Positions 16,243 through 64,000 of a DNA stretch of 64,000 bases are shown here, piece after piece; the stretch's first letter is position 1; each line of letters opens with the position of its first letter. A program made the position numbers and the translations under genes. The notes under the pieces are model-generated. The model did not search any database. It was not told where the DNA came from and was given only the letters and a program-made list of their open reading frames with translations. Origin of the DNA: a virus (Duplodnaviria > Caudoviricetes); IMG/VR virus record IMGVR_UViG_3300031953_000001, one strand, 5' to 3'.

Positions 16243-16260
16243 GCAACCTTAAGGTGACCG

Positions 16261-16434: not shown

Positions 16435-16479
16435 GGTTCGCCCTACTGCTGTATGCCCAATCCGATTGAACGATTTTAT

Positions 16480-16497
16480 AAACCTATATCACACAGG
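16480..16497 (+). promoter_or_regulatory. putative early promoter AAACCTATATCACACAGG
   Basis: Exact copy of the 18-mer. Confidence 0.7.
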
Positions 16498-16555
16498 TAG
16501 CACACGTGTGCCGCTCTGTCGATTCGTAATACCCCACCCTGTACGGAGAACACCC

Positions 16556-16873: not shown

Positions 16874-16943
16874 TGCACATCTTCGGAGAAGTGGGTTCGC
16901 CCACTTTCTCCATCCCTTTTCTTTTTTCGATAAGGAAACCTGT

Positions 16944-18080
16944 ATGTCCCTACGTGAACAGATGCTGCAACACCGAGTAGATGCCTTAGAAGAGGCCGTT
17001 GAGAACTTAATCGTAACCATTCAGACGCACCTACCCAGCGCAGGCGGTATGGCAGACAACGCTCGATCGGCTATCTATTCGGCCGGCGCGTACGTTGAAA
17101 CAATGGTCGCTCAAACACTCGCCGCACCTAGAGTCGCGCGCAGGGCAAGTCACGATAAGGTATTAAGCAACGGAGATCTTGGTCGACTAATGCGGATCTA
17201 CATTCCCCTGTTGTTGGAATGTGACCCAGAGCAGCGGTTCTTAAAACGAACCGACCGGGATAGAGGTAGGAGAGATTTGTCGGATACATACACCTTGGAT
17301 CTTTCATCGATACCTAAAGCTGCTCACACCCCAGTACCCCATTCCCACACAACGGCGAACAACGACCATACGAGAATGGCGTTGCGCGTTTCAAATAAAA
17401 TACAAGGTATGTGGTTCGCTACTTGCATCTCAGGCACTGAGTTGTATCACGACGAATGGTCGAGTTACTCAACTGAGTACGATGGCGTTGCCATGTCGTT
17501 GTTTGAAAAAGAGCTCATCGAAGCCATATCACAGATCTTTAAAGTCCTGAACCGATCGGATGCGATGATCGACCCCAACTTCGATCTGCACGGTAGAAAC
17601 GGTGTGAACCACAAGTTGACCTTATCCCACGACACCTGGCGTCGGGAAGCGATCTTGCTGGGGACAGCCATTGAGGGACAAGGAGTGACCCTCGCCTCTA
17701 AATCTTCCAACGAGGACGTCATCCCCAACCTAAGGATCACGTTGTGGAAAGACCTCCCCGACAAAGCCATAACGATCGCAATCGGACCTCAACACGGAGA
17801 CACCTTCGTACTGAAAGTCTTCCGTGACCAACAAATTCTATCGCTACGTAAGTACGACGGTATCGATCAAGAGTTGCGCCCAAGTGATCTGAATGTACTC
17901 GATCGTGCTCGACTCAAACTGCTGATTGAATTTGTCGTGGCGCTGATGCGAGGCGAACATACGGGTACCGACTTATCGTTCCGTGATCCCACTGGGATTC
18001 AGGTGGACTGGGACGTTACCGTCATTCCGACCCCAGACATCGAAGACGCTCAAGACGAAAACTATTCGCTTCCTACGTGA
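16944..18080 (+). CDS. hypothetical protein
   Basis: AAGGA SD, ATG at 16944; about 378 aa. Confidence 0.75.
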   Translation: MSLREQMLQHRVDALEEAVENLIVTIQTHLPSAGGMADNARSAIYSAGAYVETMVAQTLAAPRVARRASHDKVLSNGDLGRLMRIYIPLLLECDPEQRFLKRTDRDRGRRDLSDTYTLDLSSIPKAAHTPVPHSHTTANNDHTRMALRVSNKIQGMWFATCISGTELYHDEWSSYSTEYDGVAMSLFEKELIEAISQIFKVLNRSDAMIDPNFDLHGRNGVNHKLTLSHDTWRREAILLGTAIEGQGVTLASKSSNEDVIPNLRITLWKDLPDKAITIAIGPQHGDTFVLKVFRDQQILSLRKYDGIDQELRPSDLNVLDRARLKLLIEFVVALMRGEHTGTDLSFRDPTGIQVDWDVTVIPTPDIEDAQDENYSLPT

Positions 18081-18132
18081 GGTAACTGTATCGCAGCCAC
18101 ACTAGATGTGACTCCATAGTGCTGAGGCGTAA

Positions 18133-18177
18133 CGCATAAGGGGAGCTTCGGTTCCCCTTATTTTTTGTCATGGTATG
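18133..18177 (+). promoter_or_regulatory. terminator hairpin immediately followed by late promoter ATGGTATG
   Basis: CGCATAAGGGGAGC-TTCG-GTTCCCCTTAT-T-tract-GTC-ATGGTATG. Confidence 0.7.
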
Positions 18178-18214
18178 GCCGAAGACCTATATTCTTCTAA
18201 CCGAGGATACACGT

Positions 18215-18643
18215 ATGCTACGCAGACACTTCTTTGAAGAGAACGCCCCCTCCTTGGAGTCGGCGGATGAAACCATTGAGCAGCGCATCGATGCGATGGC
18301 AAAACTCAAGGATGTAAACGACAAGAGCTTCAACGCAGTCAACTGGCAGATCGCTATGGACCACATCGTTCAGAAGAGCGATAAGGCGTCCGCTAAGACA
18401 TTGGTTGGGTTGTTGACGAAGGGTATGACAGACACCCTTGAGAAAGCCGTCACGGAAGGCTCACTGGCTGACAGCGATTTGCCCAGCGCCGAGCAACGCG
18501 ACCGGCTGATCGATCTTGGACTGATGTCCCTGGTTTCGGAGAAAGGCAAGAAGATGAATGCCGTCTCCATGGTTGGGTTTAAGTTCTGGGACTTGGCTGG
18601 GGGTGACACCGCAGCGAAAGACGACAAGGACGACGGCGACTGA
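18215..18643 (+). CDS. putative virion head protein with an N-terminal propeptide
   Basis: GAGGA SD; early APSLE site; late promoter motif upstream. Confidence 0.6.
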   Translation: MLRRHFFEENAPSLESADETIEQRIDAMAKLKDVNDKSFNAVNWQIAMDHIVQKSDKASAKTLVGLLTKGMTDTLEKAVTEGSLADSDLPSAEQRDRLIDLGLMSLVSEKGKKMNAVSMVGFKFWDLAGGDTAAKDDKDDGD

Positions 18644-18687
18644 CCGCCGGCATAGGGGAGGGCGACGGCCCTCCCCTTATGTCGTTT

Positions 18688-19065
18688 TTACGTTTTGCTG
18701 GTCAAATCGATCTCTGTTGAGACGCCTGTGGGTTTTTGGCGGGAAGGTTCTCCTCCAGGGTCGCCACCGATCCTTCCTTTGAGGTCGGGGTTCAACGCCG
18801 CACCGGTTAATAAAGCCCCAAACGCCAAATGGAACAGTCCTGAACCGCGGAGTGTAAACGGCTCGTACCCATTGCCCACCACGGATACAACCTGACTCTG
18901 TATTCCAACGTCCATGCCTTTGATCTGATCAATCAACACCACCAAATCCAATCGGTTCAACCCCACCCATGCTGGGAATACCACAAAATCGCACAGACAG
19001 ATCAACGTATAAACAAACGCCGCCGCCGGTTTCCAGTGAGTTACCATCCAGTTATGTACTTTCAT
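18688..19065 (-). CDS. membrane protein, possible holin
   Basis: W...WKPAAAFVY..IC.CDF..FP ... PFTL.G.GLFHLAFGA.L pattern with 2-3 hydrophobic segments; TTGGTATG upstream at 19090-19097. Confidence 0.5.
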   Translation of the reverse strand: MKVHNWMVTHWKPAAAFVYTLICLCDFVVFPAWVGLNRLDLVVLIDQIKGMDVGIQSQVVSVVGNGYEPFTLRGSGLFHLAFGALLTGAALNPDLKGRIGGDPGGEPSRQKPTGVSTEIDLTSKT

Positions 19066-19138
19066 ACCCTATTCCTATTTAAGAACATACATACCAAACG
19101 GCATAAGGGACGGCCGAAGCCGCCCTTAAGAATACTGG

Positions 19139-49978: not shown

Positions 49979-51232
49979 ATGGACCTGAAAACACACGCTT
50001 TTTTCGTTGAAGTCGCCGCTGGTGCCACTATGTATCGTCGTCCTCTGGTTATTAACGATGGCGTGGTAACCATCGCCGAAGAGCATGGTGGCGCCGTCGA
50101 AGTCCCCGAGGCAAAGAACGGGAAGCGGATGGTAATGCATTTGGTCGCCGAACGATCTACACCAGACGGGCAGAGGTACATTCAGGTATTAACCGGTTAC
50201 ACCGATCGCGGTGTTGAAAAATCGCACGTCCTGGACCCAGAAACAAAGATTTACTTCAACCGGTTGGTGTCTGCCAGCGGAATAGGTCAAGCGCTGAGCG
50301 CGCGTTGGACCGGGCAGATATTCACACCTAATTCTCCTATGGGCTCTGGAATGCCAATGCGAAGATTGGCCCCAGAAGACATCGTAGGAGAATTGGCATT
50401 TCAAAGAGAGTTCCACTTCGAAAGTGGGATTGAGGATGCGAGATCGTACATTTACGGACTTAAACTGACCGACGCTGCCTTTCTAGAACCGACGACGTAT
50501 CTGTCCAAAATACAGGAGACATACACCCGCACACTGTCTGAGTGGGAGGAGAGCTCTCTATTTGATGACAACGATGACCGGCCCCTCGACGTGTGTTTGA
50601 ATCGACTGAAGTCTATGCCAATGGCTTGCAGTCCGATCTTGGCGAGAATACGGATGATGAATGACCATCTACTCAACAACTACATCACGTACGAGCAATT
50701 TAATCAATTAGTTGACGACAAAGACGTGGTGGTGGTTTTGCAGTCCGATACCGAGAAAAACAATCCTGCACCATCACATGACTGGAACAACAACGACCTG
50801 GAAACATTGGTCTGCGCCCGGCTGGAAGCAGAGCTGCCGACGGTGATGATTAACCGGGGAGTCGTCCAATGGGGGTTTAGCATTGTGTTTGATGGAGTAG
50901 GCTCTAGCGTCAAGTTCTACGCTTTAGATACGGAATTGACAACGGAACACCCACCCACCCTGATATCCGAACTCGAACGGCGAGTGATCGACATACTGAC
51001 ACCGTATATGGATGAGTTGAGTACCCTCGAGGTTACCGGCGCCAATATCCATAACAGTCGATATGTCATCACGTCAAATACGGGGAAACCTCGCACCTAC
51101 ATCGCACCTACGTATATGAATTCCATGTACAGTAGCTACTTGTCATCAGACTCAAAACACTTTGTGAAACTCGCCAAGACGGTGGAGGACTCCTTGGTGA
51201 ATCTTGGATTGGATGTCGTCACTAAGCACTGA
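49979..51232 (+). CDS. divergent homolog of the phage-nucleus import factor PicA/Imp1 (phiKZ gp69)
   Basis: Collinear motifs matching my recollection of gp69-family proteins: YRRP, GYTD.G....LDP....YFN, PEDI, W...D....A.....P.VM, E.ERR...IL and APT..S.... Confidence 0.6.
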   Translation: MDLKTHAFFVEVAAGATMYRRPLVINDGVVTIAEEHGGAVEVPEAKNGKRMVMHLVAERSTPDGQRYIQVLTGYTDRGVEKSHVLDPETKIYFNRLVSASGIGQALSARWTGQIFTPNSPMGSGMPMRRLAPEDIVGELAFQREFHFESGIEDARSYIYGLKLTDAAFLEPTTYLSKIQETYTRTLSEWEESSLFDDNDDRPLDVCLNRLKSMPMACSPILARIRMMNDHLLNNYITYEQFNQLVDDKDVVVVLQSDTEKNNPAPSHDWNNNDLETLVCARLEAELPTVMINRGVVQWGFSIVFDGVGSSVKFYALDTELTTEHPPTLISELERRVIDILTPYMDELSTLEVTGANIHNSRYVITSNTGKPRTYIAPTYMNSMYSSYLSSDSKHFVKLAKTVEDSLVNLGLDVVTKH

Positions 51233-51568: not shown

Positions 51569-52372
51569 TTAGACCGTCGTCTGACGCGCGTACGCTTCAG
51601 CCATTTTTTCATCGTACTTGTTCTTTTTGTAAGACGGTCCGTTGTAGATGCGTGCAAACGTTGCCCAGTCTTTTTGTTCTAACGCGCGGTGTAGCCGTGG
51701 GTCCGCGGCGATAAACCGTACAAAGGCATACAGTTGATGGGCTTCGTCGATGCACATCTTCGACATAAAGTCGTCCACTGAAGCGTAGTTGAGATACTTC
51801 CAGTGAAAACCCATGATCTGATATCGTCCGTACGATGCACTTTCTTTGGCAGCTGGGGTGTTCAACTCCATAGCTTTGCGCAGACGAGTCCATTCGTGCT
51901 TGCCCCCACGGTAACCGCCCCAACCGGTGTTGACCAAATCAGGACGTGCCGCTCGACCCAACTCCGCTGCCAGAGGTAACTTGGCCTCAAGCAGACGACG
52001 GTTCATGATGTGGCGCTCAAACAAGATTTTCGGCAGACCCGCTTCTAAGAAACCACCGCCTTGACTTTCCACCTCAGACACCGCCTTGATGGCCGCTACC
52101 TCTACACTCAACATTTCCGCAGCCCGCATCACGTCTTTCTCGGTCAACTGCCAATCGTCGACGCGGTTGTCGTTCAACTCTTCCCAGGTTCGCTTACCGG
52201 CTACGCCGTCGGCCAACAGTCCCGCTTTTGTTTGAAACGCCACTAAGGCCCGGTGGGTACCTGGCCCAAAGGCCCCGTCATCGGGTGGATTAAGGTGACC
52301 TTTATCGATCAACAGGCGCTGCAGCTGTGCCACTGCCTGGCCCCGAGAACCCAACTTTATCAATTTACTCAT
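51569..52372 (-). CDS. modular endolysin: PG-binding domain plus DUF3380-type muramidase
   Basis: LGSRG.AV.QLQ..L...DG.FG..T..A...FQ...GL.ADG.AG..TW, then AV.EVES, PKILFERH, SYG.YQIMGF and FAR.YNG..Y..N.YD.KM motifs. Confidence 0.92.
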   Translation of the reverse strand: MSKLIKLGSRGQAVAQLQRLLIDKGHLNPPDDGAFGPGTHRALVAFQTKAGLLADGVAGKRTWEELNDNRVDDWQLTEKDVMRAAEMLSVEVAAIKAVSEVESQGGGFLEAGLPKILFERHIMNRRLLEAKLPLAAELGRAARPDLVNTGWGGYRGGKHEWTRLRKAMELNTPAAKESASYGRYQIMGFHWKYLNYASVDDFMSKMCIDEAHQLYAFVRFIAADPRLHRALEQKDWATFARIYNGPSYKKNKYDEKMAEAYARQTTV

Positions 52373-52391
52373 GTTGTGCACCTTTTATTAA

Positions 52392-53429
52392 TTAATCGGC
52401 CGCTGTGCAACCCGTTGGAACCGTAATGAGCATATCAGTATCGCCAATGATGCTGGCGGTACTTACAATGTCCACGTCAGAGAGGACAGTTCCTTTTACT
52501 CGCGAGACGTCCAAGGTAATAACACCTGCCTGACTGCGCGCGTTGTTGCCAATCGACGTATTGATCGCGTTAATCGCACCGGCGGCGCTACTGATGACGC
52601 TGCCCTTAACCAATACCCCGTTCAAGGTAGTGACGCCACCACTGATGATGTCCTTACCAACCGTGCTGCCAGTGCCAATGTTGATCGCACCGCTGCCGGT
52701 GGAAACTGAGCCTCCCACAGTAACGTTGTTGGTCAGACCTACAACGCCCGCGCCGGTACTGACAACGCTACCACACAACCAACTTCGGTCGCCTATGGTG
52801 ATGCCGCCAGCGGTGGTGGCGATACCGCCGCCAAGGACGACGTCCGTTAATAAGGTAACCACCCCATCGGTGGATGACACCTCACCGTCCACCGTGCTTC
52901 TCACCCCTAAATTAATCCCGCCGGCTTGGGTGCTGACATCCCCCCCGACTCGACTTTTATACTCCAAGGTTATTACACCGGTAGAGGCACTGGTGCTGAT
53001 GTTCCCAGACAGTCTACTTTCACTGGCTAAATTAACGGTCCCCACCCCGACTACGTTGGCGTTCATTATTGAATTTGCACCCAACACAAACGCCGCGTTG
53101 GTAATCAACGTAAGGTCCTCGGACGGTTTTCCAGCGTTGATCAGATTGCCCGTCCCGGTGGTGAAGGTTCCGGAAAAGGTAATCGTAACCGGAGTCACAC
53201 CGCCCAGAGCGATGGTGTCGCCTGCAACCAACTCCAACGCACTGCATCCGTAGGAGCGCGCCCCGGCATCGATGAGACTACAGCCTATGGGTAGCGTGTC
53301 TCCATTGGAAGAAAACGTGTAATTAGTGGCGGCTTGAACAAGATTGCTTAACAGCAACCCTACCACCAGCAGCGTCTGACACAAGAGTTGTATCGGCGTA
53401 TACCGACGGTGGGGGCTTTGGTGTTTCAT
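52392..53429 (-). CDS. secreted beta-helix protein resembling the N-terminus of MshQ/DUF6701-type pilus-associated adhesins
   Basis: Sec signal ending VQA; ATNYTF...LP.GCS...Y.C.AL.L..GDTI; repeated G.V.T..G.I.L/IG units. Confidence 0.55.
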   Translation of the reverse strand: MKHQSPHRRYTPIQLLCQTLLVVGLLLSNLVQAATNYTFSSNGDTLPIGCSLIDAGARSYGCSALELVAGDTIALGGVTPVTITFSGTFTTGTGNLINAGKPSEDLTLITNAAFVLGANSIMNANVVGVGTVNLASESRLSGNISTSASTGVITLEYKSRVGGDVSTQAGGINLGVRSTVDGEVSSTDGVVTLLTDVVLGGGIATTAGGITIGDRSWLCGSVVSTGAGVVGLTNNVTVGGSVSTGSGAINIGTGSTVGKDIISGGVTTLNGVLVKGSVISSAAGAINAINTSIGNNARSQAGVITLDVSRVKGTVLSDVDIVSTASIIGDTDMLITVPTGCTAAD

Positions 53430-53467: not shown

Positions 53468-54682
53468 TTAAAAGTTAGGTAAATAGTTGGTTTGGATGTT
53501 GCTGTCGAAACTGAAACCGCCAAAGAGAGTTACTTGACTCACAGTCCAACCGCTGAGGTCCTGATTGAAGGCCCCCGCAAAACTGAACATGGAACTCATG
53601 TTGGTCACCTTACTCACATCCCACTGACTCAAAGGTCGGTTGAAGGCGCCAGCTCGATAGAACATAGAACCCATGTCCACCACGTTGCCTACCCCCCAAT
53701 CGTTCAAAGGAAGGTTAAACGCCGTCGCTCTAAAGAACATGGCGTTCATGTTGGTGACGCTGCTGACATCCCAGCTGTTGAGCGGTTGATTAAATGATTC
53801 GGCCCCAGAGAACATCTGCATTGTGGTCTCAACACCGCTGACATCCCAAGCCTCCAGCGGCTGGTTGTAGCTTACGGCTCGGTTAAACATGGCCGTCATA
53901 TCCACCACACCGCTGACGTTCCATTGGTTAAGCGGTAGATTAAAGGCCGCGGCCTCTCGGAACATGTGTGAGGTGTCGATCACATTACTCATGTCCCAGT
54001 GGCTAATATTGCTGTTGAAGTCAGCTGCCCCGTAAAACATATACCGACACGACGTCCCAGGGAGAAAGGCCGGACTGTCAGCGTCGTTGATCACAAACCC
54101 GGTCCGGTTTTGGAACATACGTTCGCCTGAGGCAAACGTAGTTAGTCCCCACCGCCATATATTTTTCCACTGTTTCTGATGTTCTGGTAACGGTGCGGTA
54201 AACCCGGCGATGGCGCCTAACACATGAACGTCGTATATCCCAGGGACCGCGTAAGTGTGACTGATGCCCCGGGTGGTTGTTACATACCCAGAGCCATCGC
54301 CCCAGTCGATGGTGACGTCACTGCCGGCGGCAAAGGGTAAGGCCACGTCGGCGGCGCCTGCCGTGTCACCTTCGGTGTCGATCAATATATGCGTACCGTC
54401 CCGGATCGGATGTCCCCGCATTAAGATAACGGCGATCTCATCGCGAACCGACTCACCCATAAACAGAGGTTGGCTGAACAGCTGATCGATGTCGGTGATT
54501 GTAGGGTCGTCTCGTTTGACTTGAAAGACCAGTCTTGCGTACTCATCGCCTTTGATTTGAGCCGTGGATTTGGCGCTGAGGAGATCCCATGGAGTGACCT
54601 CTGATAACACCGCTTGCCGGTAAGCTTCGGTGGCGTTGTACAGCTCATTGCGTTTGGCATAAAGATCGTCGAGGATAGCCAT
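53468..54682 (-). CDS. domain X + PKD-like + DUF285/BspA-like 25-residue repeat surface protein
   Basis: N-terminal domain X; IDWGDG..HTY..PG.Y.V; seven MF..A..FNQPL..WDVS.V..M repeats. Confidence 0.85.
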   Translation of the reverse strand: MAILDDLYAKRNELYNATEAYRQAVLSEVTPWDLLSAKSTAQIKGDEYARLVFQVKRDDPTITDIDQLFSQPLFMGESVRDEIAVILMRGHPIRDGTHILIDTEGDTAGAADVALPFAAGSDVTIDWGDGSGYVTTTRGISHTYAVPGIYDVHVLGAIAGFTAPLPEHQKQWKNIWRWGLTTFASGERMFQNRTGFVINDADSPAFLPGTSCRYMFYGAADFNSNISHWDMSNVIDTSHMFREAAAFNLPLNQWNVSGVVDMTAMFNRAVSYNQPLEAWDVSGVETTMQMFSGAESFNQPLNSWDVSSVTNMNAMFFRATAFNLPLNDWGVGNVVDMGSMFYRAGAFNRPLSQWDVSKVTNMSSMFSFAGAFNQDLSGWTVSQVTLFGGFSFDSNIQTNYLPNF

Positions 54683-54734: not shown

Positions 54735-55520
54735 TTATTTACGAAACAACGTCTCACCTAACCATCCAATGGGGTCTATGCGGTGGAAACGTACTTGATT
54801 TGGGTGTCGATGATGTTCTTCGTGCCAGCAGTCACCGAGAATAAAGGGAAACATCCATAAACTGCTGTGGGCGCGGTCGTGATCGTTGCCCCAACCGTGG
54901 CCCCAGGTGTTGGCTAACGATTGCAGTTGCCACACCAGAGCCGGTGGCGCCCAGACTAGAGCCAAGGCCCAGTCCAACGGCAGCAGCCAGAGACTGCCTA
55001 ACAACACCGATCCGTAGATCTTCCAGTAGTGTCTGTGAAACCCCACATGCCAGGTATCTCGCAACAAACGCCCGGCATGCCGGCCGCTGACCTCTCGAAA
55101 GGTGTACCCTAACAGCTGAATGGCCAGCCAATGACTCTGAGCTGGACTATGAGGGTCCTTAGGGGTCCCCTGGTGCTTGTGATGGGCATTGTGAGTGGCA
55201 ACCCACCCCAACGTACTGCCTTGAAGTGAAAGCCCTCCCAGAAGAGTTAGAATCACCTCTACGGATCGGGGTACAGTTACGGTCTTGTGCGTCAGCACTC
55301 GATGGTACATAAAACTGATCCCCAGTTGTGAGATCAGGTACGCCATCCCTAGGGCCAGTAACAGAGCGCCACCGGCACCAGAAAAGACCAATGTCAAAAC
55401 GACAGCGTGTGACGCGATGATCACGCTGTAATGCAAGACTCGGTTCAGAGGTACGATTTCTACATTGATCGCGCGCAGTCGGTCCATGGTACTTCCTTTT
55501 AAGTCAATAAGAACGTTCAA
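54735..55520 (-). CDS. membrane fatty-acid desaturase (Delta9-like), copy 1
   Basis: His boxes YHRVLTH, HNAHH and WHEEHH; DPHS; hydrophobic helices. Confidence 0.88.
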   Translation of the reverse strand: MNVLIDLKGSTMDRLRAINVEIVPLNRVLHYSVIIASHAVVLTLVFSGAGGALLLALGMAYLISQLGISFMYHRVLTHKTVTVPRSVEVILTLLGGLSLQGSTLGWVATHNAHHKHQGTPKDPHSPAQSHWLAIQLLGYTFREVSGRHAGRLLRDTWHVGFHRHYWKIYGSVLLGSLWLLPLDWALALVWAPPALVWQLQSLANTWGHGWGNDHDRAHSSLWMFPFILGDCWHEEHHRHPNQVRFHRIDPIGWLGETLFRK

Positions 55521-56416
55521 AGCGTCTCTATGTCAAAGGCATTGAAGAAGGCTTCATCCAAGTGACCATACCGATCGTTCCAGCGTCGGGTGTTTTCTTT
55601 TACCGCTTGGTAGAAGGGGTCGCTCAAATGAGACTTCACCTCAAACGCCCTGTTCAGGTAACGGCGAAACGGGATTTGCAAGAACACTCGGTCGGTGGTG
55701 AGGTTTGGGGTCCATGGGTAGATGGGACCTGCAAAGTTGGCGACAGCGGCTTCTCTTAATCGGACATGATGTCTAAGGCACATCGAGTAGGTCAAACGAT
55801 CCACCACGCTGACTTCGGGTTTGATCACAAAATTGCCTGGCAATAACCCTTTCTTTAGCGGGGCGGCTAACCGATTAATGAAGTGTTTGTAATGCCCTCG
55901 GTCTGGGTTGTCTTGGGCTAAGTAACGTGCGTCCAGATCAGCCCAGTCTGGGTTTGATCGTAATCGGGCCAAGTTGAACACCGCCAGTCCCAACGTGAAA
56001 TAACTCTTAGATCGCACCAGACGATCGGGGTGATGTGGATCGAATCTCACATACAGGTCGTTCATTGAGGACAACTCAAACGGACGGTCGGGTCGAACAA
56101 CCACGTCTTGACCGCTCAGATCGGCGTGACTCACCTCAGCGATGGGTCGGTTACACACACTGTGACTGCTCACCAAACACACCCGGTCTTCGGTGCTGTG
56201 CTCAAGTAACGTAGACAGAACCGCCACCGGGTCAGCACGGTGGATCTGAACGTACTCAAGGGTGTCGGCAAATGCCGCTTCCAATCGCCTGAGAGCCAAT
56301 ACATCGTCGCTGTAGACTCGGCACCGCCAAGTCGGGTTCTTCAGTTTAAAACTGTGAATCGCCACTATGGCCTGATCGACTTTTTCCCATGGCACCACAA
56401 AAGCAGCAAAGGCCAT
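55517..56416 (-). CDS. glycosyltransferase family 8-like protein lacking the DxD motif
   Basis: YFTLGLAVFNLARLR resembles GT8 YFNAGV...NL..WR; NFAGPIYPW resembles HF.G..KPW; DxD position reads VSSHS. Confidence 0.55.
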   Translation of the reverse strand: MAFAAFVVPWEKVDQAIVAIHSFKLKNPTWRCRVYSDDVLALRRLEAAFADTLEYVQIHRADPVAVLSTLLEHSTEDRVCLVSSHSVCNRPIAEVSHADLSGQDVVVRPDRPFELSSMNDLYVRFDPHHPDRLVRSKSYFTLGLAVFNLARLRSNPDWADLDARYLAQDNPDRGHYKHFINRLAAPLKKGLLPGNFVIKPEVSVVDRLTYSMCLRHHVRLREAAVANFAGPIYPWTPNLTTDRVFLQIPFRRYLNRAFEVKSHLSDPFYQAVKENTRRWNDRYGHLDEAFFNAFDIETL

Positions 56417-56426
56417 GACGGTCTCC

Positions 56427-56951
56427 TTATGCGTTTAAGAAATCGATTTCCAAGGCCGCCATGACCCCGCCATTGGGACCTGCGGTGACCGTAATCTCAC
56501 TGCCTGATAGTCGAACGATCTGCATGTCGTTCACGGGCGTGTCATTAAGAGACACTTCCCCCAACACCGGCGCCAGGTACCCAGGAAAGCCTACCGACAT
56601 CGTCTCATTAGGTCCTAAGACCAAACGGTGGGGTTTGATCACCCGGTGGTTTGGGTTGGTGGTGTTCAGACAGATGCCGATGGTCTCTTCCAGCGCAGTG
56701 ACCTTAGTCCAATACGGATTGCCTTTCTGTGCAATGTCGTCGTGGGCGGTCAGTTGGTATTCGTTGAACGTGTTTTGACTTAAGGTACTGCCTTTGACCA
56801 AGAACCGACTTTCCACCACCGGTATAAAATCGTCGGTGTACTTTTCTTCCCAGTGGGGTTTCTTCCCCAGAATGAAAGACTCGTCTTTGTCAACGTAGAA
56901 CTTAGCCACCGCCACACCTTCGTGACGCAAGCGATTAACCCGTGTGCGCAT
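56427..56951 (-). CDS. hypothetical protein, beta-rich
   Basis: Coupled within the operon; no motif recognised. Confidence 0.65.
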   Translation of the reverse strand: MRTRVNRLRHEGVAVAKFYVDKDESFILGKKPHWEEKYTDDFIPVVESRFLVKGSTLSQNTFNEYQLTAHDDIAQKGNPYWTKVTALEETIGICLNTTNPNHRVIKPHRLVLGPNETMSVGFPGYLAPVLGEVSLNDTPVNDMQIVRLSGSEITVTAGPNGGVMAALEIDFLNA

Positions 56952-56953
56952 GA

Positions 56954-57259
56954 TTAAAACTCCAGAGGTTGGTCTTGGGTGTGGACATCGCCGTCATCGT
57001 AATGCACGTACAGGGCGTCTGGGGTCGATCCGACCCGCTGTTCAATAAGTTCGCGGAGTTGTGAAGATAATGCCAACTCAGCAGGCAACTCAGGCCGCAG
57101 CTCTTCGATCAACTCTCGCATACGAATGAGAGGCAAGTTAGGGTCGTCAACTATGGCTTGAGGCAACGGGTGGCTATGCACCACCCACCCCCAATCGACT
57201 AACGCAGTCTTATCGACCAGATCAATGGCTTTGACTACAAAGGACATCACGTTCTCCAT
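56954..57259 (-). CDS. hypothetical protein
   Basis: ATG at 57259 overlaps the upstream TGA (TGATG coupling). Confidence 0.65.
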   Translation of the reverse strand: MENVMSFVVKAIDLVDKTALVDWGWVVHSHPLPQAIVDDPNLPLIRMRELIEELRPELPAELALSSQLRELIEQRVGSTPDALYVHYDDGDVHTQDQPLEF

Positions 57260-58116
57260 CAGAGTTGTTTGGGGTAGGTACGTTGGTGCTCTAACGCGAT
57301 GAGGGACAGCGTCTTCTCCATCCGCTCTGAACTGTCGTCTACCCAACAAACCCCACTGTAAGGGCTGGCTAGGAAACGCCTCAGCGCGATGTGTGGGTTG
57401 GTCTGTGAAAACACCGCCTTGTATATTTGTCGGTAGATGTTTCGGGCACAGGTGGGGTCCGTGCTGTCTACTAACTTCACGACCTTACCCAACAGTAACC
57501 CCAACAACCCCATTTCGGAGGCAGAGGTGGTGTATACGGTCTCAGCCCGACGTAAGTAATCGAACCCACTCAAAGTGGCAGGTAACACCGCCCCTGGAAA
57601 ACTGTCGTTCAACTTTTTCAACCAAGCCCCGTTAGTGATGGGATGGGGTTTGATCTTACTGCCCCGCCGATACAGCTGGAACACCCTGACCCAATCGACG
57701 TTGTGTTCCAACAAGTTGGTGCCCGGTAGAAACACCACCGATGGGATGGTGGTTTTGTCCAACTGACGAGTGAGTCGATACTTATCCAACCGCATCCCCA
57801 ACAGACGTTGTTCCACATCGATAGGTTCAGCATCGGTGTCGCTGACCGCCGAGATTGCCATACCGTACCGAAGTCTATCGTCGCAGGGGGTGATCATGAT
57901 GGCTCGGGTAAAGAGTTCGGTGTAATGTAAGGATTTGAATTCAGGATCGGGGGTGTAATAAATGTCGTACAACACTTCTTTGGTTGTCAGCGACTCTAAC
58001 CGTTGTCCTAAGACGTCCAATTGACTCAAAGCCGCCACTCGACCTAAAGGGCCGGATTTGAAGACCTGAGTCACCGCTGAGTCTATACGGTCCTCAGTAA
58101 ACGACCGTCGGGTCAT
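57259..58116 (-). CDS. KpsS/capsule-synthesis-like GT-B glycosyltransferase
   Basis: VFLPG, IKPHP and V.TT.SE.GLLGLLLGK.V match the Capsule_synth-type KPHP and T..S..G.EA.L.GK.V motifs. Confidence 0.6.
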   Translation of the reverse strand: MTRRSFTEDRIDSAVTQVFKSGPLGRVAALSQLDVLGQRLESLTTKEVLYDIYYTPDPEFKSLHYTELFTRAIMITPCDDRLRYGMAISAVSDTDAEPIDVEQRLLGMRLDKYRLTRQLDKTTIPSVVFLPGTNLLEHNVDWVRVFQLYRRGSKIKPHPITNGAWLKKLNDSFPGAVLPATLSGFDYLRRAETVYTTSASEMGLLGLLLGKVVKLVDSTDPTCARNIYRQIYKAVFSQTNPHIALRRFLASPYSGVCWVDDSSERMEKTLSLIALEHQRTYPKQL

Positions 58117-58343
58117 ACGGCGCCGTCCAACCGTTTGGCCAAGATCTCGTCTACTCGGGACTGCACCCGATCGTCAACCACGGCGTTGATGTTGGTTTCA
58201 AACTCGTCCATAATCGCCGCTACCCGATCGTCAAACCGAGTGATGTGTTCCAATAACGCCTCGGCTAAGGTCTCAATGCGCAGGCGCGCAGCGTCCAGTT
58301 CGGCTAAGGTGACGGCTTTATCGGCTACGGTTGCTTCAGTCAT
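58113..58343 (-). CDS. small coiled-coil protein
   Basis: Heptad pattern; ATGA overlap with the next gene. Confidence 0.7.
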   Translation of the reverse strand: MTEATVADKAVTLAELDAARLRIETLAEALLEHITRFDDRVAAIMDEFETNINAVVDDRVQSRVDEILAKRLDGAV

Positions 58344-58357
58344 AAAATATTCCTTGC

Positions 58358-58870
58358 TCAGTATAGCTGTAGTGCGATGATGGCGGTGTTGGCTGAGGTG
58401 GTGTACTCAGTGGTTCGACTGCCGGCCAAGGTGGTGGTGTTTCGGGTTAAGGTGGTGTTTCTTGCTGTGACGTGCGATGTGGTGCGGGACGCAAAGACGG
58501 CGGTGGTGACCGAAGTACTCAATGTCTTCCCGCCGGTGTCTGGTATCTCCGTAATGCGCGAGGTGGTGCGAGACCCAGACTGATACGTAGTTGCGTACGA
58601 GGTGTTGAAACTCGTTGACGCTATCCAGGACGTTAAGGTCGTGGTGGAGGCGTCTGTGGTACGAGTGGCCGTGGCTGTGGTCACTCGGGTGGTGGACACC
58701 GACCGCGAGTAAGTCACGTTTAACATGTCGCTCAGACGAAACGGTGGCGTGAGCGGCATGCTTGGAAAGCCTCGACCCAGCAGGTTGGACATGCGATTGT
58801 CGGGGAGCGTGTTTTGAAATTCGGTGATCACGTCCGAGAATCGTAGCGGTGGACTGCCTTGTAATGCCAT
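58358..58870 (-). CDS. Ser/Thr-rich tail-tip adhesin-like protein
   Basis: N-terminal MALQGSPPLRFSDVITEF...RLSDM resembles fibre-tip anchor domains; about half of the last 110 residues are S/T. Confidence 0.6.
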   Translation of the reverse strand: MALQGSPPLRFSDVITEFQNTLPDNRMSNLLGRGFPSMPLTPPFRLSDMLNVTYSRSVSTTRVTTATATRTTDASTTTLTSWIASTSFNTSYATTYQSGSRTTSRITEIPDTGGKTLSTSVTTAVFASRTTSHVTARNTTLTRNTTTLAGSRTTEYTTSANTAIIALQLY

Positions 58871-58873
58871 AGG

Positions 58874-59620
58874 TTACTCCTTTTTAATCAGACGAATAAA
58901 CCAGGCGGCAAAGTCCCATTCCCACCAGCGTTCTTGGGTGTTCCAATGTCCCGGGTGGGCGTGATGGTTGTTGTGCCATCCATCCCCAGCGGTTAATACG
59001 TTCATCAGCCAACTGTTACGACTGCGGTCGGGCGTCTCGTGGTTGCGGTAACCCCAACCATGGCCGAGGGTGTTGAACACTCCTTTCAGATGAAACAACA
59101 GAGCCGTAGGAAGACACCAGCCGTAGACCAGCAGTTTCCAGTCGATCAAACTCAACCCCAAGGCGTAAATCAGCAGAATGAGAACGTAGTAGTCGTGTGT
59201 GATCTGATAGAACCGTTGTTTACGTTCGGTTCGAATGGCGCGATGGTCCAAGACCCAAGGTCGATCCAGCCAATCTCCAAACCAAGCGTCGATAAGGCCG
59301 TGTTGGTGTTGGCTGTGTGGGTCTCTGGGGCGATCTGAAAAGCCGTGATGGGTTCGGTGTACCAATGCGTTTGTCAATGGCGAGCCTAATGCAGTCAAGA
59401 TCCCCACGCCCGTGAGTGCAAGCTCAATGGGTTTATAGGTTTCAAACGACCTGTGCGCCAACAATCGATGATACCCCACGGTGATGCCAAAGAACCCATA
59501 GGCGTAATAGATAGCTAATGTAAACCCAAGCCAGCCCCACCAGCCGAGATAGATCGCCAGAGGCAGAAACACACACAACACCAGTTGGTTGCAGATTTGA
59601 AGGTGTTTTAGATACGTCAT
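58874..59620 (-). CDS. membrane fatty-acid desaturase (Delta9-like), copy 2
   Basis: GYHRLLAHRSF, HRTHH, DPHS, NTLGH, GYRN..T.D.SRN and WHNNHH. Confidence 0.92.
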   Translation of the reverse strand: MTYLKHLQICNQLVLCVFLPLAIYLGWWGWLGFTLAIYYAYGFFGITVGYHRLLAHRSFETYKPIELALTGVGILTALGSPLTNALVHRTHHGFSDRPRDPHSQHQHGLIDAWFGDWLDRPWVLDHRAIRTERKQRFYQITHDYYVLILLIYALGLSLIDWKLLVYGWCLPTALLFHLKGVFNTLGHGWGYRNHETPDRSRNSWLMNVLTAGDGWHNNHHAHPGHWNTQERWWEWDFAAWFIRLIKKE

Positions 59621-59700
59621 GGTTTACTCGCTCAATCGGAGTGGGTTCACTCTATTAGAGATCGCTGTCAAAGAACAGACATCCATGTCCTAATGAAACC

Positions 59701-61923
59701 TCAACGGCGATTAAGTCGGTCCGACAACTTGACGGTCAGCTCTTGAACGGTGACCTCCAGCCAAGCGACGCGGCGGTTGCTGATGTCCAACTCTCTCGCC
59801 ATCTGTTTGATGGAGTGTTGCGCCAGGGCGTGAAAGTCGTTGTACGACAACCCCTCGTAACCGTCGTCTTTCTGTCTTACCAAGTCAGGGAAGAACGCTT
59901 TAACGTCTGTGGTCAGAAACCCGTAGTGGGTTTGATTTGAGACGTCTTCAGTTAGGCGATACGAGTAGGGTCTCAGTTCCAGATAGTTATACAACGCGTT
60001 ATCCAGAGCTTTCACGTCTTCCTTCAATCGAGGATCGGAGGTGTAGACCACATCGCCGGCGTACAGATCGCCGGTGACCGTAAGATCGCCGGTGACCGTA
60101 TCGCCACCCGCTTTACCGACGTACCGAGCGTCGTGATCGCCCGACACGCGGTGATCGTTCATACCCTTGGCTTGCAATACCGTGTCCGTGTCGACGGACG
60201 TTCGCAGCGCGGTGGTGGGCAAGTTCGGCTCTGCGTTGGCGGCAACGGTGTCGAGTTTGACGACGTTGGCCGACGCCATCAATCCGGCTGCTGAAACGCT
60301 GGCCAGAGGGAAGGCGACGCCATCTCCCGTAGACGACACCAAGGTAGGGGCTTCTGCCGTGCCGCCCACACTGAGGTCCGTGGCTACGTTGACCTGCGCT
60401 CCCGATTGAACGCTGGCCAGTTTACTGTGGTCGTTGATGCTCATGAACCCGGCAGCCGTATCCGTTGCCACAGGAATGGCCACGTTGTTGCCCGTGCTGC
60501 TTACCAAGGTTCGAGTGTCGCCCGCACCGGTCAAGGTCAGATCCGTACCCACATTGACTTGAGCACCGGAACTCACCCCATCCAACTTCACTTTATCGCT
60601 GGCGGACATGACGCCGGCGTTGGTGACACTTACCCCAGGAATGGCGACATTGTTGCCGTAGCTGTTGGTGATCGTGATACTGGTGGCGGTTTGCGTGAGC
60701 GCCAAGTTACTGGGTACATTGACCTGGGCGCCTGTCTCTACCCCCCCGAGTTTGGTGAACTGCGCCATGGACATCAACCCGGCCGTGCTGGCTGAGGCTG
60801 TCGGTAAGACCACGTTACTACCGGTGGACGAGGTGACACCGCGAGCATCGCCGGTCCCACTCAACCCGAGGTTGGTGCCCACGTTGACTTGTGCGCCAAT
60901 CGCCACACCGGCCAATTTGGTTTTCTCAGTCGAACTGTAATCTTCGCTCGATAGCCCTTTGCCAGCGACGGTGTTCACTTTGGTGAGCAGCGCCGTGTCC
61001 ACTTGAAGTTGAGTGTAATAACGCCCGTCGTGGTCGTCGGACGCGACGTGATCTACCATTCCTTTGGCCGTCAGCACCGTACCTGTCTCATTCAACGTTC
61101 GTGACGAGGTGGTGGGCAAGTTCACTTCCGCCGCGGTTTGGATGTTGGCCAATTTGGTAAACTGACTTGGCGCCATCAACCCAACCTTGGACGCATCGGC
61201 CACCACCAAATCAACTCCGGTACCACCACTGTTCTCTATGCGGTAGGTTGTACCCCCACGAGTGAACGTCAAGTTCACCGCAACGTTCTGCTCAGCGCCG
61301 GCTTCAATGCCGGTTAATTTACTCAACCAGGCATCGGTGAAGTCATTTGCACTTAAGGCTTTGCCCGTGACTTTATCGACTTTGGTACCCAAGGCTGACT
61401 GCAACCCGGCGATCGAATCGATGCTCAAGTTCTCCAACGAGTCTCGATTGAGCTTGATGTAATCCACAATCTCTTGGATCTGATCCAGAGTGGTGTCGTC
61501 GCTGCCAATCAAGGCGTTGATGGCGTCCACCGCGTCTTTCAGTACCTTACCTTGCGCCGCACTCAACACCTCACTGGGGGCGTTGCTGGTCAGCGTATCG
61601 GCGATGTTGGCGATGTCAATTTTCAACGCCAAGGCCGCATCCATTTCCGTTTCGGTGTAGTAACGCCCGTCGTGGTCGTCGGACGCGACGTGATCTACCA
61701 TCCCTTTGGCGGTTAACAAGACCCCGGTGCTATTGACCGTGCGTTCGATGGTGATGGCGTTCGGAATCTGGTCCAACCCGACCTGTACTTTGGTCACTGA
61801 GTGGGGATTATCGTCTCGTGCAATGTGCGTGTCCGTGTTCTCAAAGAGAATGTCGATCTTTCCCTTGAGGGTTTCGAACATACGCTTGACCGCTGCGGTT
61901 AGCTGGTCGGTTGGTTTGGTCAT
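59701..61923 (-). CDS. tail fibre with a C-terminal intramolecular chaperone (Peptidase_S74)
   Basis: NPHSVTKVQVGL start, KL.G...GAQVN repeats, SDPRLKED..L...YGF..DV...FPDLV. Confidence 0.88.
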   Translation of the reverse strand: MTKPTDQLTAAVKRMFETLKGKIDILFENTDTHIARDDNPHSVTKVQVGLDQIPNAITIERTVNSTGVLLTAKGMVDHVASDDHDGRYYTETEMDAALALKIDIANIADTLTSNAPSEVLSAAQGKVLKDAVDAINALIGSDDTTLDQIQEIVDYIKLNRDSLENLSIDSIAGLQSALGTKVDKVTGKALSANDFTDAWLSKLTGIEAGAEQNVAVNLTFTRGGTTYRIENSGGTGVDLVVADASKVGLMAPSQFTKLANIQTAAEVNLPTTSSRTLNETGTVLTAKGMVDHVASDDHDGRYYTQLQVDTALLTKVNTVAGKGLSSEDYSSTEKTKLAGVAIGAQVNVGTNLGLSGTGDARGVTSSTGSNVVLPTASASTAGLMSMAQFTKLGGVETGAQVNVPSNLALTQTATSITITNSYGNNVAIPGVSVTNAGVMSASDKVKLDGVSSGAQVNVGTDLTLTGAGDTRTLVSSTGNNVAIPVATDTAAGFMSINDHSKLASVQSGAQVNVATDLSVGGTAEAPTLVSSTGDGVAFPLASVSAAGLMASANVVKLDTVAANAEPNLPTTALRTSVDTDTVLQAKGMNDHRVSGDHDARYVGKAGGDTVTGDLTVTGDLYAGDVVYTSDPRLKEDVKALDNALYNYLELRPYSYRLTEDVSNQTHYGFLTTDVKAFFPDLVRQKDDGYEGLSYNDFHALAQHSIKQMARELDISNRRVAWLEVTVQELTVKLSDRLNRR
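61019..61701. repeat. 41-bp exact direct repeat inside the tail fibre gene (61019-61059 and 61661-61701)
   Basis: TAACGCCCGTCGTGGTCGTCGGACGCGACGTGATCTACCAT occurs twice, encoding MVDHVASDDHDGRY. Confidence 0.95.
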
Positions 61924-62002
61924 ACCGGATTCCCCGTACTAGGCAAAATAAGACGAAGGCGTCCTCGCAAAAGGCGCCCTCGTCGATGATTCGGTTAGGA
62001 TC

Positions 62003-62461
62003 TTACGATGACGTGGAGCTGATCGTTAACAGTGGCATGCACAACCACAAGCGACTGGGAGACATGGGCAGATCGGGCCAGGACAAAGTAGACCCCCCTA
62101 TCGTAAGCGCGGTGGCCACAAAGGTTGCCGGGTTCCAGCCCTCTAAAGTGCGTGGGGTACCGATGGGCATCCATTGAGGTTTGTCGTACGCAGGTTTGGT
62201 TATCTGCGTTCTTACGAATCGGGACATGGCCTCAGAATCGGTCACCCGCACCACCACCAAACTTCGGTCTGGGTACCGGTCTTCGAACGTTGTCTTAGTT
62301 CTAAACACCACCCCCGAGTCGACGTCTACCTCAGCGATGTAGGAGTTCAACTCCAACGCCACGTGATCCCAATAGGTTTGGGTAACAAGACGACGCACCG
62401 AGGCCGTCTTGCCAGGTCTGCGAGCAAACCAGACCTTTACCCATTTATTTTTTGGTCGCAT
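62003..62461 (-). CDS. permuted papain-like (YiiX/NlpC-P60-like) protein lacking the catalytic Cys
   Basis: WDHVAL His motif and K..YD retained; WFCSELVA position reads WNPATFVA. Confidence 0.5.
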   Translation of the reverse strand: MRPKNKWVKVWFARRPGKTASVRRLVTQTYWDHVALELNSYIAEVDVDSGVVFRTKTTFEDRYPDRSLVVVRVTDSEAMSRFVRTQITKPAYDKPQWMPIGTPRTLEGWNPATFVATALTIGGSTLSWPDLPMSPSRLWLCMPLLTISSTSS

Positions 62462-62714
62462 CGATGACTTTCACCACATCGCTCAGAGACAAGCCCGTCC
62501 ACTGACCGTAGACTTGAGTCAACGTCTCTACGTCCTTGGTGTTGTACAGCGCGCTTTCAATCAACTTAACCAGAAGATCGTCGATGGAGTTGTCGGTCTT
62601 CTTAGACAGCAAGACCAACTTGGTGATGATGATGCGTTTGACGGCGTCGGTACCCAGCAGACTGAGTAGAATCTCACCGAGTTTGCTCAGCATCAAAGTC
62701 ATAGTGGTTTTCAT
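62445..62714 (-). CDS. small late protein
   Basis: AGGAG SD before ATG 62714; KKTDNSIDD motif; late promoter upstream. Confidence 0.65.
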   Translation of the reverse strand: MKTTMTLMLSKLGEILLSLLGTDAVKRIIITKLVLLSKKTDNSIDDLLVKLIESALYNTKDVETLTQVYGQWTGLSLSDVVKVIDATKK

Positions 62715-62747
62715 AGGTCTTCTCCTAACGGTTAAACTAAGTGTGGT

Positions 62748-62755
62748 CATACCAT
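62748..62755 (-). promoter_or_regulatory. putative late promoter ATGGTATG driving the tail fibre operon
   Basis: CATACCAT on +, downstream of the hairpin at 62787-62817. Confidence 0.6.
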
Positions 62756-62786
62756 TTCAAGAAGATGAGCCCGATCCTTAAAGCGG

Positions 62787-62822
62787 AATAAGAGGAGACC
62801 TGTTGGTCTCCTCTTTGTTTTA
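62787..62822. terminator. terminator hairpin
   Basis: ATAAGAGGAGACC-TGTT-GGTCTCCTCTT. Confidence 0.75.
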
Positions 62823-62833
62823 TGCTCACATTG

Positions 62834-63115
62834 TCAACGGGTACGTATAATAGCGGCTACATCATCCCGCCGAAGAGACGACATTAAGTCTGGGTTGCTG
62901 AACAAAACGTCGTCTATTAAAGTGGGGTTGTCTTTCTTCACCCGCCCCATTAACTTTGCGTATTCAACGACGGTCACTCGCGCAGCTTTACGAGAAGCGG
63001 TAACCTCAAACTGTGTGGTGCGTTTGTGGTTAAACTCCTCAACCGTGCGTTTGTAATCATCGATCGCCGCATTTAACTCCGCGCGCTTTACGTTTAAATC
63101 TGTAACTGTAACCAT
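62834..63115 (-). CDS. small helical protein, domain X copy 3
   Basis: Homologous to 25406..25696. Confidence 0.8.
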   Translation of the reverse strand: MVTVTDLNVKRAELNAAIDDYKRTVEEFNHKRTTQFEVTASRKAARVTVVEYAKLMGRVKKDNPTLIDDVLFSNPDLMSSLRRDDVAAIIRTR

Positions 63116-63124
63116 GACTGTGTC

Positions 63125-63973
63125 TCATATAGAGTCGAGGGAGGGATATCCTTCTCTCTTATCGACGTGTCGCATCAAATGGTGAGTCGATGGGTTTATC
63201 GGCGATGGGTGAGCGCCTTCGTTTGAGCGTTTACGAATGATCCGAATGATCCACGCGGGTAAGTCGAACTCCCACCATCGGACCTGGTTATTCCAATGTT
63301 GCGGATTGTGATGGTGGTTGTTGTGCCAGCCTTCCCCTAAGAACAACCAAGCCACCATCGGTGAATTGCGACTGTCGTCGTCGGTGTTGTAATTACGGTA
63401 ACCGACCGTGTGGGTCCAAGCCAAAGCGAACTTGAACACATACAGAATGATCGTGGCCGGCATGGCAAACGCAAAGACCACCAACCGCCAATCGATCGCC
63501 AGTAAGACCAAACACCAAACTCCCAAGATCGTGAAGTAGTGATTGTGACAAAACACGATGTCTTTCTGACGCAGCAGGTCTTTAGCTATTCTAGGCGACA
63601 GCTTTACCTCCGGCCAGTGCCCAAACCACACCCTAAAGAACCCCTGCACTTTGGGGCTGTGTGGGTCGGATGTGGTGTCTGCCTTGGCGTGATGGGTACG
63701 GTGCACGATCGTCCAGTTGATCGGAGAACCAAACCCCATCAACATCCCGACAAAGAGCAAAACGTAACGAATGGGGGTGTAGGTCTCAAATGACCTGTGG
63801 GCAACGTATCGGTGGTACCCCAAGGAGTTACCGAACAGACTGAGGACGTAGTACATCCCCAAGGCCACCAACAACCACTCGTATTGTTCGCTGTACATCA
63901 CGTATCCTAACCCCACCGCGGTTAACAGGTGATTGCCGCGGTTTAACCACAGTAGTTTGTGGTTATGGCTCAT
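63125..63973 (-). CDS. membrane fatty-acid desaturase (Delta9-like), copy 3
   Basis: GGAGG SD; GYHRYVAHRSF, HRTHH, DPHS, GYRN..T.D.SRN and WHNNHH. Confidence 0.92.
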   Translation of the reverse strand: MSHNHKLLWLNRGNHLLTAVGLGYVMYSEQYEWLLVALGMYYVLSLFGNSLGYHRYVAHRSFETYTPIRYVLLFVGMLMGFGSPINWTIVHRTHHAKADTTSDPHSPKVQGFFRVWFGHWPEVKLSPRIAKDLLRQKDIVFCHNHYFTILGVWCLVLLAIDWRLVVFAFAMPATIILYVFKFALAWTHTVGYRNYNTDDDSRNSPMVAWLFLGEGWHNNHHHNPQHWNNQVRWWEFDLPAWIIRIIRKRSNEGAHPSPINPSTHHLMRHVDKREGYPSLDSI

Positions 63974-64000
63974 AACGTCCTCCGGTATTTAGGCAAAGGT

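Follow-up and report, generated by a model that had tools for sequence, protein, structure and literature searches.

Five diverged desaturase genes and a FabB-like ketosynthase as a possible lipid-tailoring module of a phiKZ-like phage from Arctic cryopeg brine

This work deals with a group of genes for membrane fatty-acid desaturases in 64,000 nucleotides of viral DNA (the window, i.e., the whole stretch that was analysed) belonging to the IMG/VR virus record IMGVR_UViG_3300031953_000001. The window is the minus strand of G000:110133-174132, G000 being a complete virus record of 222,493 bp with terminal repeats; the exact terminal repeat has 127 bp, yielding a unit genome of 222,366 bp. An earlier reading of the window, made from its letters alone (the sequence-only reading), had described three desaturase genes. 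A search of the whole genome yielded five genes of the Pfam family PF00487, all above the gathering score of 29.7 bits, and thus the count of three was an artefact of the window edge: copies 1, 2, and 3 of that reading are D5, D4, and D3, respectively, and D1 and D2 are located just beyond position 64000 of the window. A gene encoding a FabB-like beta-ketoacyl-acyl carrier protein synthase (KAS; ACP, acyl carrier protein) precedes them. The core genes of the locus are the following:

G000:107385-108590, off-window, directly upstream of D1: FabB-like KAS, 401 aa, Pfam PF00109 and PF02801
G000 about 108601-109359, off-window: desaturase D1, PF00487 at 70.6 bits (Pfam)
G000:109363-110163, minus strand of the window, with its last 31 nt (3' end) at window 63970..64000: desaturase D2, PF00487 in the genome search, NCBIfam DesA-family match
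Window 63125..63973, minus strand: desaturase D3, 282 aa, PF00487 at 58.7 bits, C-terminal tail of ~30 aa, GGAGGA ribosome-binding site
Window 58874..59620, minus strand: desaturase D4, 248 aa, PF00487 at 58.4 bits
Window 54735..55487, minus strand: desaturase D5, 250 aa, PF00487 at 41.8 bits, the most divergent paralog

The three genes called earlier are indeed intact and keep all their His boxes. The coordinates given for D3 and D4 stand, and only the start of D5, placed at 55520, has to be moved: the frame is open from a TTG at that position, an ATG at 55487 is preceded by the Shine-Dalgarno sequence AAGGAAG, and the orthologs have 250-251 aa. The most likely start is the ATG, giving a predicted protein of 250 aa.

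The His boxes, which follow the pattern HX4H/HX2HH/HX2HH, read HRVLTH/HNAHH/HEEHH in D5, HRLLAH/HRTHH/HNNHH in D4, and HRYVAH/HRTHH/HNNHH in D3. Together with one more conserved His, the boxes supply nine His ligands, which are complete in each of the five paralogs and in 15 of 15 orthologs; a QxxHH third box is absent from all five paralogs. The family profile matches human SCD1 (4ZYO) and mouse SCD1 (4YMK) over its whole length with an E-value of 5e-44, and the AlkB alkane hydroxylase only at 1.7e-5; the match to SCD1 excludes a chance origin of these open reading frames. The AlphaFold models of D4 (predicted local distance difference test, pLDDT, 96; predicted template modelling score, pTM, 0.91) and D5 (pLDDT 88.7) have the four long helices typical of the SCD1 fold, without an added domain, in agreement with the transmembrane helices and the lack of a cytochrome b5 fusion claimed before; cytochrome b5 was not found anywhere in the genome either. 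In Foldseek searches, these models matched 6WF2, 4ZYO, and 4YMK with template modelling (TM) scores of 0.74-0.77 and DesC1/DesC2 with 0.77-0.84. For D4, the scores were 0.75 with SCD1 and 0.81 with the cyanobacterial sn-1 Delta9 desaturase DesC1 (34% identity), and the top structural neighbours of D5 were the Delta9 acyl-lipid desaturases DesC2 (best match) and DesC1. Further neighbours of the models, equally close in fold, include desaturases of Delta5, Delta7, Delta11, and Delta12 specificity, conjugases, and two acetylenases acting on acyl-ACP, JamB and TtuB, so that divergent specificity within the SCD1 fold is well precedented. The Pseudomonas DesA equivalog model NF049918 gave only 28.9-86.2 bits against a cut-off of 400, covering positions 5-232 of 385. 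By family, ligands, and fold, D1-D5 are SCD1/DesC-type membrane di-iron desaturases, with a predicted activity. They share the fold and the ligand set with DesC1/DesC2 and mammalian SCD1 but, with about 250 aa, represent a minimal core, and none of the characterised enzymes is more than 34% identical to them.

The five paralogs are only 22-42% identical to each other. D3 and D4, which had been noted to be closer to each other than to the remaining copy, share 41% identity, and D5 shares 27% with each of them. D5 has only 13 homologs among 5.8 billion proteins; its orthologs are 51-75% identical, and the next sequence is 30% identical.

The genes from KAS to D3 are tightly packed. The KAS stop codon lies inside the ribosome-binding region of D1, and by this arrangement KAS is translationally coupled to this desaturase; the gap between D1 and D2 is 3 nt, and at the junction of D2 and D3 the stop and start codons overlap in the sequence ATGA. 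In an alignment with Escherichia coli FabB, the phage KAS keeps the Cys163/His298/His333 triad, Lys328, and the GFGG loop (F390-G394). BLASTP gave 206 bits with E. coli FabB and 156 bits with FabF, and the identity to FabB is 34-36% over the full length. The score with the NCBIfam FabB equivalog PRK07967, 239.5 bits, is far under the cut-off of 630, and therefore KAS is not a FabB ortholog. Thus, the enzyme shares its catalytic residues with E. coli FabB but differs in being phage-encoded, coupled to a desaturase, and below the equivalog cut-off. In gamma-proteobacteria, the synthesis of unsaturated fatty acids requires FabB as its condensing enzyme, and the presence of a conserved FabB-like partner points to acyl chains as the substrates of the neighbouring desaturases.

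The genome belongs to a phiKZ-like phage, as the sequence-only reading had proposed. Its major capsid protein is of the phiKZ type (phrog_3231, E 5e-170) and matches 220 records of jumbo phages, among which Xanthomonas phage Xoo-sp14 gives the best match (38% identity). A full-length homolog of phiKZ gp054, the nuclear shell protein chimallin, is encoded at G000:6391-8142 (634 aa, E 2e-37), and a homolog of phiKZ gp69 at G000:216733-218202 (537-aa frame, E 1e-37), this being the only match in the genome at E <= 0.001; a 417-aa frame of the window (49979-51232) stayed short of this threshold. These three homologs place the phage among the chimalliviruses (Chimalliviridae), and since it carries a chimallin homolog, it should build a phage nucleus. 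A megablast search of the region against 50,697 phage records gave no match. The tblastn matches of D4 and KAS in the same collection were not counted as phage homologs, since the layout of the records, which are multi-contig or fragmentary ('Acinetobacter phage MD-2021a' and Listeria, Staphylococcus, and Enterococcus 'phage' fragments), led us to judge them host-contaminated.

The desaturases of this phage have been published before. All viral fatty-acid desaturase (vFAD) genes of cryopeg were ascribed to two viruses with "five copies each", and their His motifs, Phyre2 models on 4ZYO, and purifying selection were described (Zhong et al., 2020; PMC7300359). Later on, vOTU43_CB18_222366 was reported as a complete circular virus encoding fatty-acid desaturases (FADs) with Pseudomonas as the predicted host, its FAD genes being transcribed at low level (Zhong et al., 2023; PMC10405475). 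By every available test, G000 and vOTU43_CB18_222366 are the same, sharing the 222,366-bp unit, the origin from brine metagenomes, and the five FAD copies. Our contribution is therefore one of interpretation and context, not of gene discovery. The words 'ketoacyl' and 'jumbo' occur in neither of the two papers, which were not searched for phiKZ, cupin, or orthology; the module of KAS, five desaturases, and cupin-like proteins, the diversification within viruses, and the wider viral arrays described below appear to be undescribed in the literature searched.

Zhong et al. (2020; PMC7300359) proposed that the vFAD genes fluidise the membrane, that several copies elevate the dosage, and that they were transferred repeatedly from hosts to viruses. 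According to this proposal, the five genes would be ordinary, redundant Delta9 acyl-lipid desaturases captured from hosts that provide a higher enzyme dose in the cold brine. It is favoured by the subzero habitat and by the fact that the nearest characterised relatives of D4 and D5 are Delta9 acyl-lipid desaturases. Its weak point is the conservation of the single paralogs in related phages. As relatives we used L008 (Logan, 98 kb), L009 (IMG/VR, 171 kb, same brines), L010 (73 kb), L174 (JGI, 81 kb), L176, and L177; an accession lookup among them identified 3300034171 as a cryopeg brine sample. The tree of ortholog groups covers G000, L008, L009, and L010, and the other three were compared by Pfam annotation only. 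KAS and five desaturases are found in the fetched locus of each of L008, L009, and L010, and the same count and order, i.e., KAS followed by four desaturases plus one, is repeated in the three further contigs L174, L176, and L177.

In a mixture-model tree, the desaturases form five ortholog groups with one member per phage, the exception being L010, where D4 is duplicated and the fetched locus contains no D5. As an example, the D3 orthologs of L008, L009, and L010 form a clade with a support of 100/99. The mean identity within ortholog groups is 46-68%, compared with 22-42% between paralogs, and the groups have 5, 7, 9, 16, and 38 fixed diagnostic residues, several of them within the ten residues that precede His box 1. 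If the copies were redundant, one would expect loss or homogenisation, and thus the retention of each of these diverged paralogs as an ortholog group counts against the dosage proposal. The five separately conserved groups argue for different specificities rather than a simple dosage, so that the part of the sequence-only reading that ascribed different substrates or regiospecificity to the copies is plausible and gains support from the conservation of the orthologs.

The phylogeny bears on the host-capture part of the same proposal. The bacterial sample consisted of the 80 best matches to D1 among the GTDB species representatives, and all trees are unrooted. The best bacterial identity among the representatives sampled is only about 35-36%, in cyanobacteria, Planctomycetota, Acidobacteriota, and Acinetobacter. 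In a tree of 94 representatives, a single branch, with a support of 98/90 and present in 98% of bootstrap trees, has all 27 bacterial sequences on the same side. Among these representatives, the clade of D1, D3, and D4 (95/90) is confined to this phage group, D2 clusters with other viral contigs, and a clade of 46 sequences (98/88), all of them viral, takes in D1-D4. D5 falls into another, small clade of viral sequences. We also considered that the five paralogs could form one exclusive lineage-specific clade, a grouping that was rejected by the approximately unbiased (AU) test (p 0.00016), with the group being named after the tree had been seen. The organisation of the loci differs as well, since a single desaturase is found within 8 kb at 78 of the 80 bacterial loci and at least two at 44 of the 81 viral loci listed.

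In contrast to the published view of repeated host acquisition, the trees place D1-D4 in virus-only clades and show one-to-one orthologs in further phages, which argues for a diversification within viruses rather than repeated capture from the sampled bacterial hosts. On sequence grounds, the copies are intact and long diverged, which speaks against their having been captured recently from one host locus, the case that the sequence-only reading had set against its own inference. Altogether, we consider it unlikely that the five genes are redundant copies taken from hosts for a higher dose.

There is also a difference from a previously known phage desaturase in gene content. The cyanophage Delta9 desaturase (Roitman et al., 2018; PMC5776448) resembles the genes described here in being phage-borne and DesC-like, with three His boxes, and in being regarded as an auxiliary metabolic gene. 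However, that cyanomyophage carries a single vFAD homologous to cyanobacterial DesC on a 94-kb contig that also encodes a ferredoxin. Unlike it, G000 is a nucleus-forming jumbo phage with five paralogs plus KAS, without ferredoxin, and its desaturases have no close cellular relatives.

The remaining genes and features of the locus that bear on its function are listed below:

Window 56427..56951, minus strand: cupin-like protein, 174 aa, without Pfam match; ESM Atlas pirin/HutD/cupin folds with TM scores of 0.57-0.64 (a lead only)
Window 55517..56416, minus strand: GT8-like glycosyltransferase, 299 aa, directly upstream of D5, no Pfam match
Window 59701..61923, minus strand: tail fibre gene, 740 aa, Pfam Peptidase_S74 and Phage_fiber_rpt, between D3 and D4
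Window 53468..54682, minus strand: DUF285/PKD surface-type protein, 404 aa, Pfam DUF285 (E 1.8e-99), outside the lipid module
Window 51569..52381, minus strand: endolysin, Pfam PG_binding_1 and Muramidase
Window 62790..62815, no strand assigned: palindromic hairpin with an 11-bp stem (terminator-like scan)
L006:8594-15377, equal to G000:100593-107376, off-window: block of four to six co-directional radical S-adenosylmethionine (SAM)/SPASM-like genes followed by two 2OG-FeII_Oxy_5 (2-oxoglutarate, 2OG) oxygenases, directly upstream of KAS

Homologs of the cupin-like protein are found beside KAS or the desaturases in all four phages (G000, L008, L009, and L010). The GT8-like protein matches Glyco_transf_8 clusters in the ESM Atlas (score 0.96, TM score 0.72), and its gene precedes D5 in G000 and L009; a partial copy ends the L010 locus, and L176 has a 298-aa gene at the same position that was not compared.

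The position of desaturases among tail-fibre, DUF285, and endolysin genes in G000 is the sole support for the suggestion, raised by the sequence-only reading, that these desaturase-like enzymes modify the tail or another virion component instead of a lipid. This adjacency does not hold as a signal. The tail fibre gene lies between D3 and D4 only in G000, its homolog follows D4 in L009 and L010, and the four desaturases are contiguous behind KAS in L009, L010, L008, L174, and L176, with the tail-fibre gene elsewhere. Moreover, the enzymes, which have the SCD1 fold, span the membrane several times, and their conserved partner is a component of fatty-acid synthesis. Therefore, a non-lipid virion substrate is unsupported, and we regard it as highly improbable.

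The surroundings of D5 vary in a similar way. In L176 and L177, the endolysin gene is the next one after D5; in L008 and L174, it lies no more than one or two genes away, and in G000 two surface-protein genes are inserted between them. One L010 protein (13973-14848) is matched both by the 93-aa protein encoded after D3 (window 62834-63115) and by the N-terminus of the DUF285/PKD protein, which suggests that the latter two share an N-terminal module, possibly a virion attachment domain. The region 52392-53429 of the window encodes a protein of 345 aa with an N-terminal signal-like hydrophobic segment and a long repetitive body rich in Gly, Ser, Thr, and Val; it has no Pfam match and no homolog in the related phages.

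Concerning the transcriptional organisation, the number of sites obtained in a promoter and terminator scan was not above that of shuffled sequence, with the hairpin at 62790..62815 as the one strong and notable site. On this weak evidence, the hairpin likely marks the end of an upstream operon comprising the radical SAM genes, the 2OG oxygenases, KAS, and D1-D3.

The radical SAM/SPASM-like genes show weak matches to peptide-maturase models, and the block that they form with the 2OG genes is syntenic in the brine phages G000, L009, and L010, with 59-81% amino-acid identity. Their tight coupling to the desaturases in these three phages brings in another explanation, according to which KAS, the desaturases, the cupin-like and GT8-like proteins, and possibly the radical SAM and 2OG enzymes build a fatty-acyl product, highly unsaturated or modified in another way, on host ACP. 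Candidates for this product, in place of remodelled bulk phospholipid, are lipids resembling polyenes or polyynes, glycolipids, and lipidated peptides. KAS enzymes act on ACP-bound chains, as this explanation requires, and the acetylenases JamB and TtuB are among the structural neighbours mentioned above. In addition, the only bacterial multi-desaturase cassettes of this family that we found described are the thiotemplated polyyne clusters (PgnD-I, Cay, and JamABC), where a desaturase triad is jointly required and QxxHH is among the His motifs (PMC9828172). The triad can be taken as the closest mechanistic analogy for clustered desaturases that are jointly required, and the two systems share the clustering of at least three membrane desaturases of the same superfamily (five in G000) and the link to ACP-dependent chemistry.

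Despite this likeness, membership in the polyyne/alkyne cassettes was rejected: an acyl-AMP ligase (PF00501), a dedicated ACP, and a rubredoxin-type donor were not found in the complete genome, where KAS takes the place of the loading ligase. The QxxHH box is missing from the five paralogs, and the paralogs resemble DesC (34% identity) more than the acetylenases (25-26%). Furthermore, L008 and L174 keep KAS and the five desaturases, but no radical SAM gene was found in the upstream flank of KAS in either of them, so that the lipid module is separable from the radical SAM/2OG block.

The desaturases of other viruses provide some further support for a specialised product. A scan of IMG/VR revealed at least 517 stretches encoding desaturase relatives, including arrays of 4, 5, 7, and 11 desaturases on unrelated viral contigs. 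L012 (IMG/VR, 2397-6211 and 11964-13177) carries 7 desaturases together with a B12-binding radical SAM protein, a cupin, a Rieske protein, and a QueC-like PP-loop enzyme. L023 (IMG/VR, 3788-19115) carries 11, with an ATP-grasp enzyme, a QueC-like protein, a rubrerythrin, and a distant KAS inside the array; the latter was counted in favour of acyl-chain chemistry. Radical SAM homologs occur within 10 kb of a desaturase at about 30 of 81 viral loci (L008-L088) vs. none of 80 bacterial loci (L089-L168), and 2OG oxygenase homologs at 7 further loci among the 81 viral ones. The reason for this proximity may be either a functional link or an accessory island that these viruses share. The QxxHH third box is found in 12 of 145 desaturases of the viral loci L011-L088 and in none of G000 or its close relatives. 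On balance, a specialised metabolite as the product of the locus seems unlikely to us.

The explanation that we favour, to which we assign a probability of roughly 55%, is that the three desaturase genes of the window belong to a conserved module with which the phage tailors lipids, its desaturases being non-redundant. This module would comprise the FabB-like KAS, five long-diverged SCD1/DesC-type di-iron desaturases, and one or two cupin-like proteins. During infection, the desaturases would insert into the host inner membrane and, with O2 and electrons from host donors, desaturate fatty-acyl chains, while KAS would use host ACP and malonyl-ACP, pushing the elongation of unsaturated acyl-ACP. 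The five paralogs would differ in the position of the double bond, the chain length, the sn-position or head group, or the acyl carrier, so that their joint effect would be to reshape or multiply the unsaturation, beyond an added enzyme dose. The likely benefit in a brine at -6 C would be a membrane kept functional for replication and lysis. The analysis shows the family membership, the intact ligands, the fold, the conservation, the synteny, and the lack of redox or ACP partners in the phage, and the enzyme activity, the substrates, the differing specificities, and the physiological benefit of the module are all inferred in this proposal.

Whole-genome searches detected no 2Fe-2S ferredoxin (Fer2), cytochrome b5, rubredoxin, or PlsC-type acyltransferase, and no ACP (PF00550), although a very divergent small ACP could escape detection. 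Consequently, the electron supply and ACP must come from the host.

Several observations weigh against a membrane lipid-tailoring module. The first one is precisely this reliance on partners from a host that is only predicted. Secondly, one Delta9 desaturase suffices for homeoviscous adaptation in many bacteria, and thus five copies are not explained by fluidity alone. Thirdly, the operon that D1-D3 share in the brine phages with five or six radical SAM/SPASM-like genes and two 2OG oxygenases fits a specialised product equally well, and other viral arrays lie beside radical SAM, cupin, Rieske, PP-loop, and ATP-grasp genes. Finally, there is the question of expression, where the evidence points both ways. 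In favour of the module, DNA of the phage is present in brine metagenomes from many studies, the habitat being the hypersaline Arctic cryopeg brine at -6 C (Zhong et al., PMC7300359 and PMC10405475). Also in favour, contigs from an RNA library span the whole desaturase cluster with at least 99% identity, and low-level FAD transcripts were found in the published mapping (PMC10405475). Against it, contig-level data are no proof of transcription and do not allow the genes to be ranked by depth, and the reported metatranscriptome coverage of the FAD genes is low (PMC10405475). Differences of 1-2 nt seen in the run X12 resemble assembly or read errors and were disregarded.

Within a lipid-tailoring module, the outcome could be either a bulk remodelling of the membrane at -6 C or a special polyunsaturated product, and the carrier could be a lipid, CoA, or ACP. 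A more specific version, which we put forward only as a tentative possibility, is that KAS and the five desaturases constitute a stepwise poly-unsaturation pathway, where each paralog adds another double bond or possibly a triple bond. If this were true, the infected cells would make, in subzero brine, polyunsaturated or exotic acyl chains beyond the ability of the host, and the other viral arrays, the largest of them with 11 copies, would represent variations on one lipid chemistry peculiar to viruses.

So far, the desaturases of viruses have been regarded as single genes of host origin with a role in adjusting membrane fluidity, and the picture looks different in this phage group. Here, a nucleus-forming jumbo phage lineage keeps five desaturases, a FabB-like enzyme, and cupin-like partners as a module, and the diversity of the desaturases lies mostly in virus-only clades. 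If the specificities of the paralogs differ, these phages would provide a compact source of minimal desaturases, of about 250 aa, with new regiospecificities. In that case they would also carry their own multi-step lipid chemistry, which bears on how an infected cell functions at -6 C.

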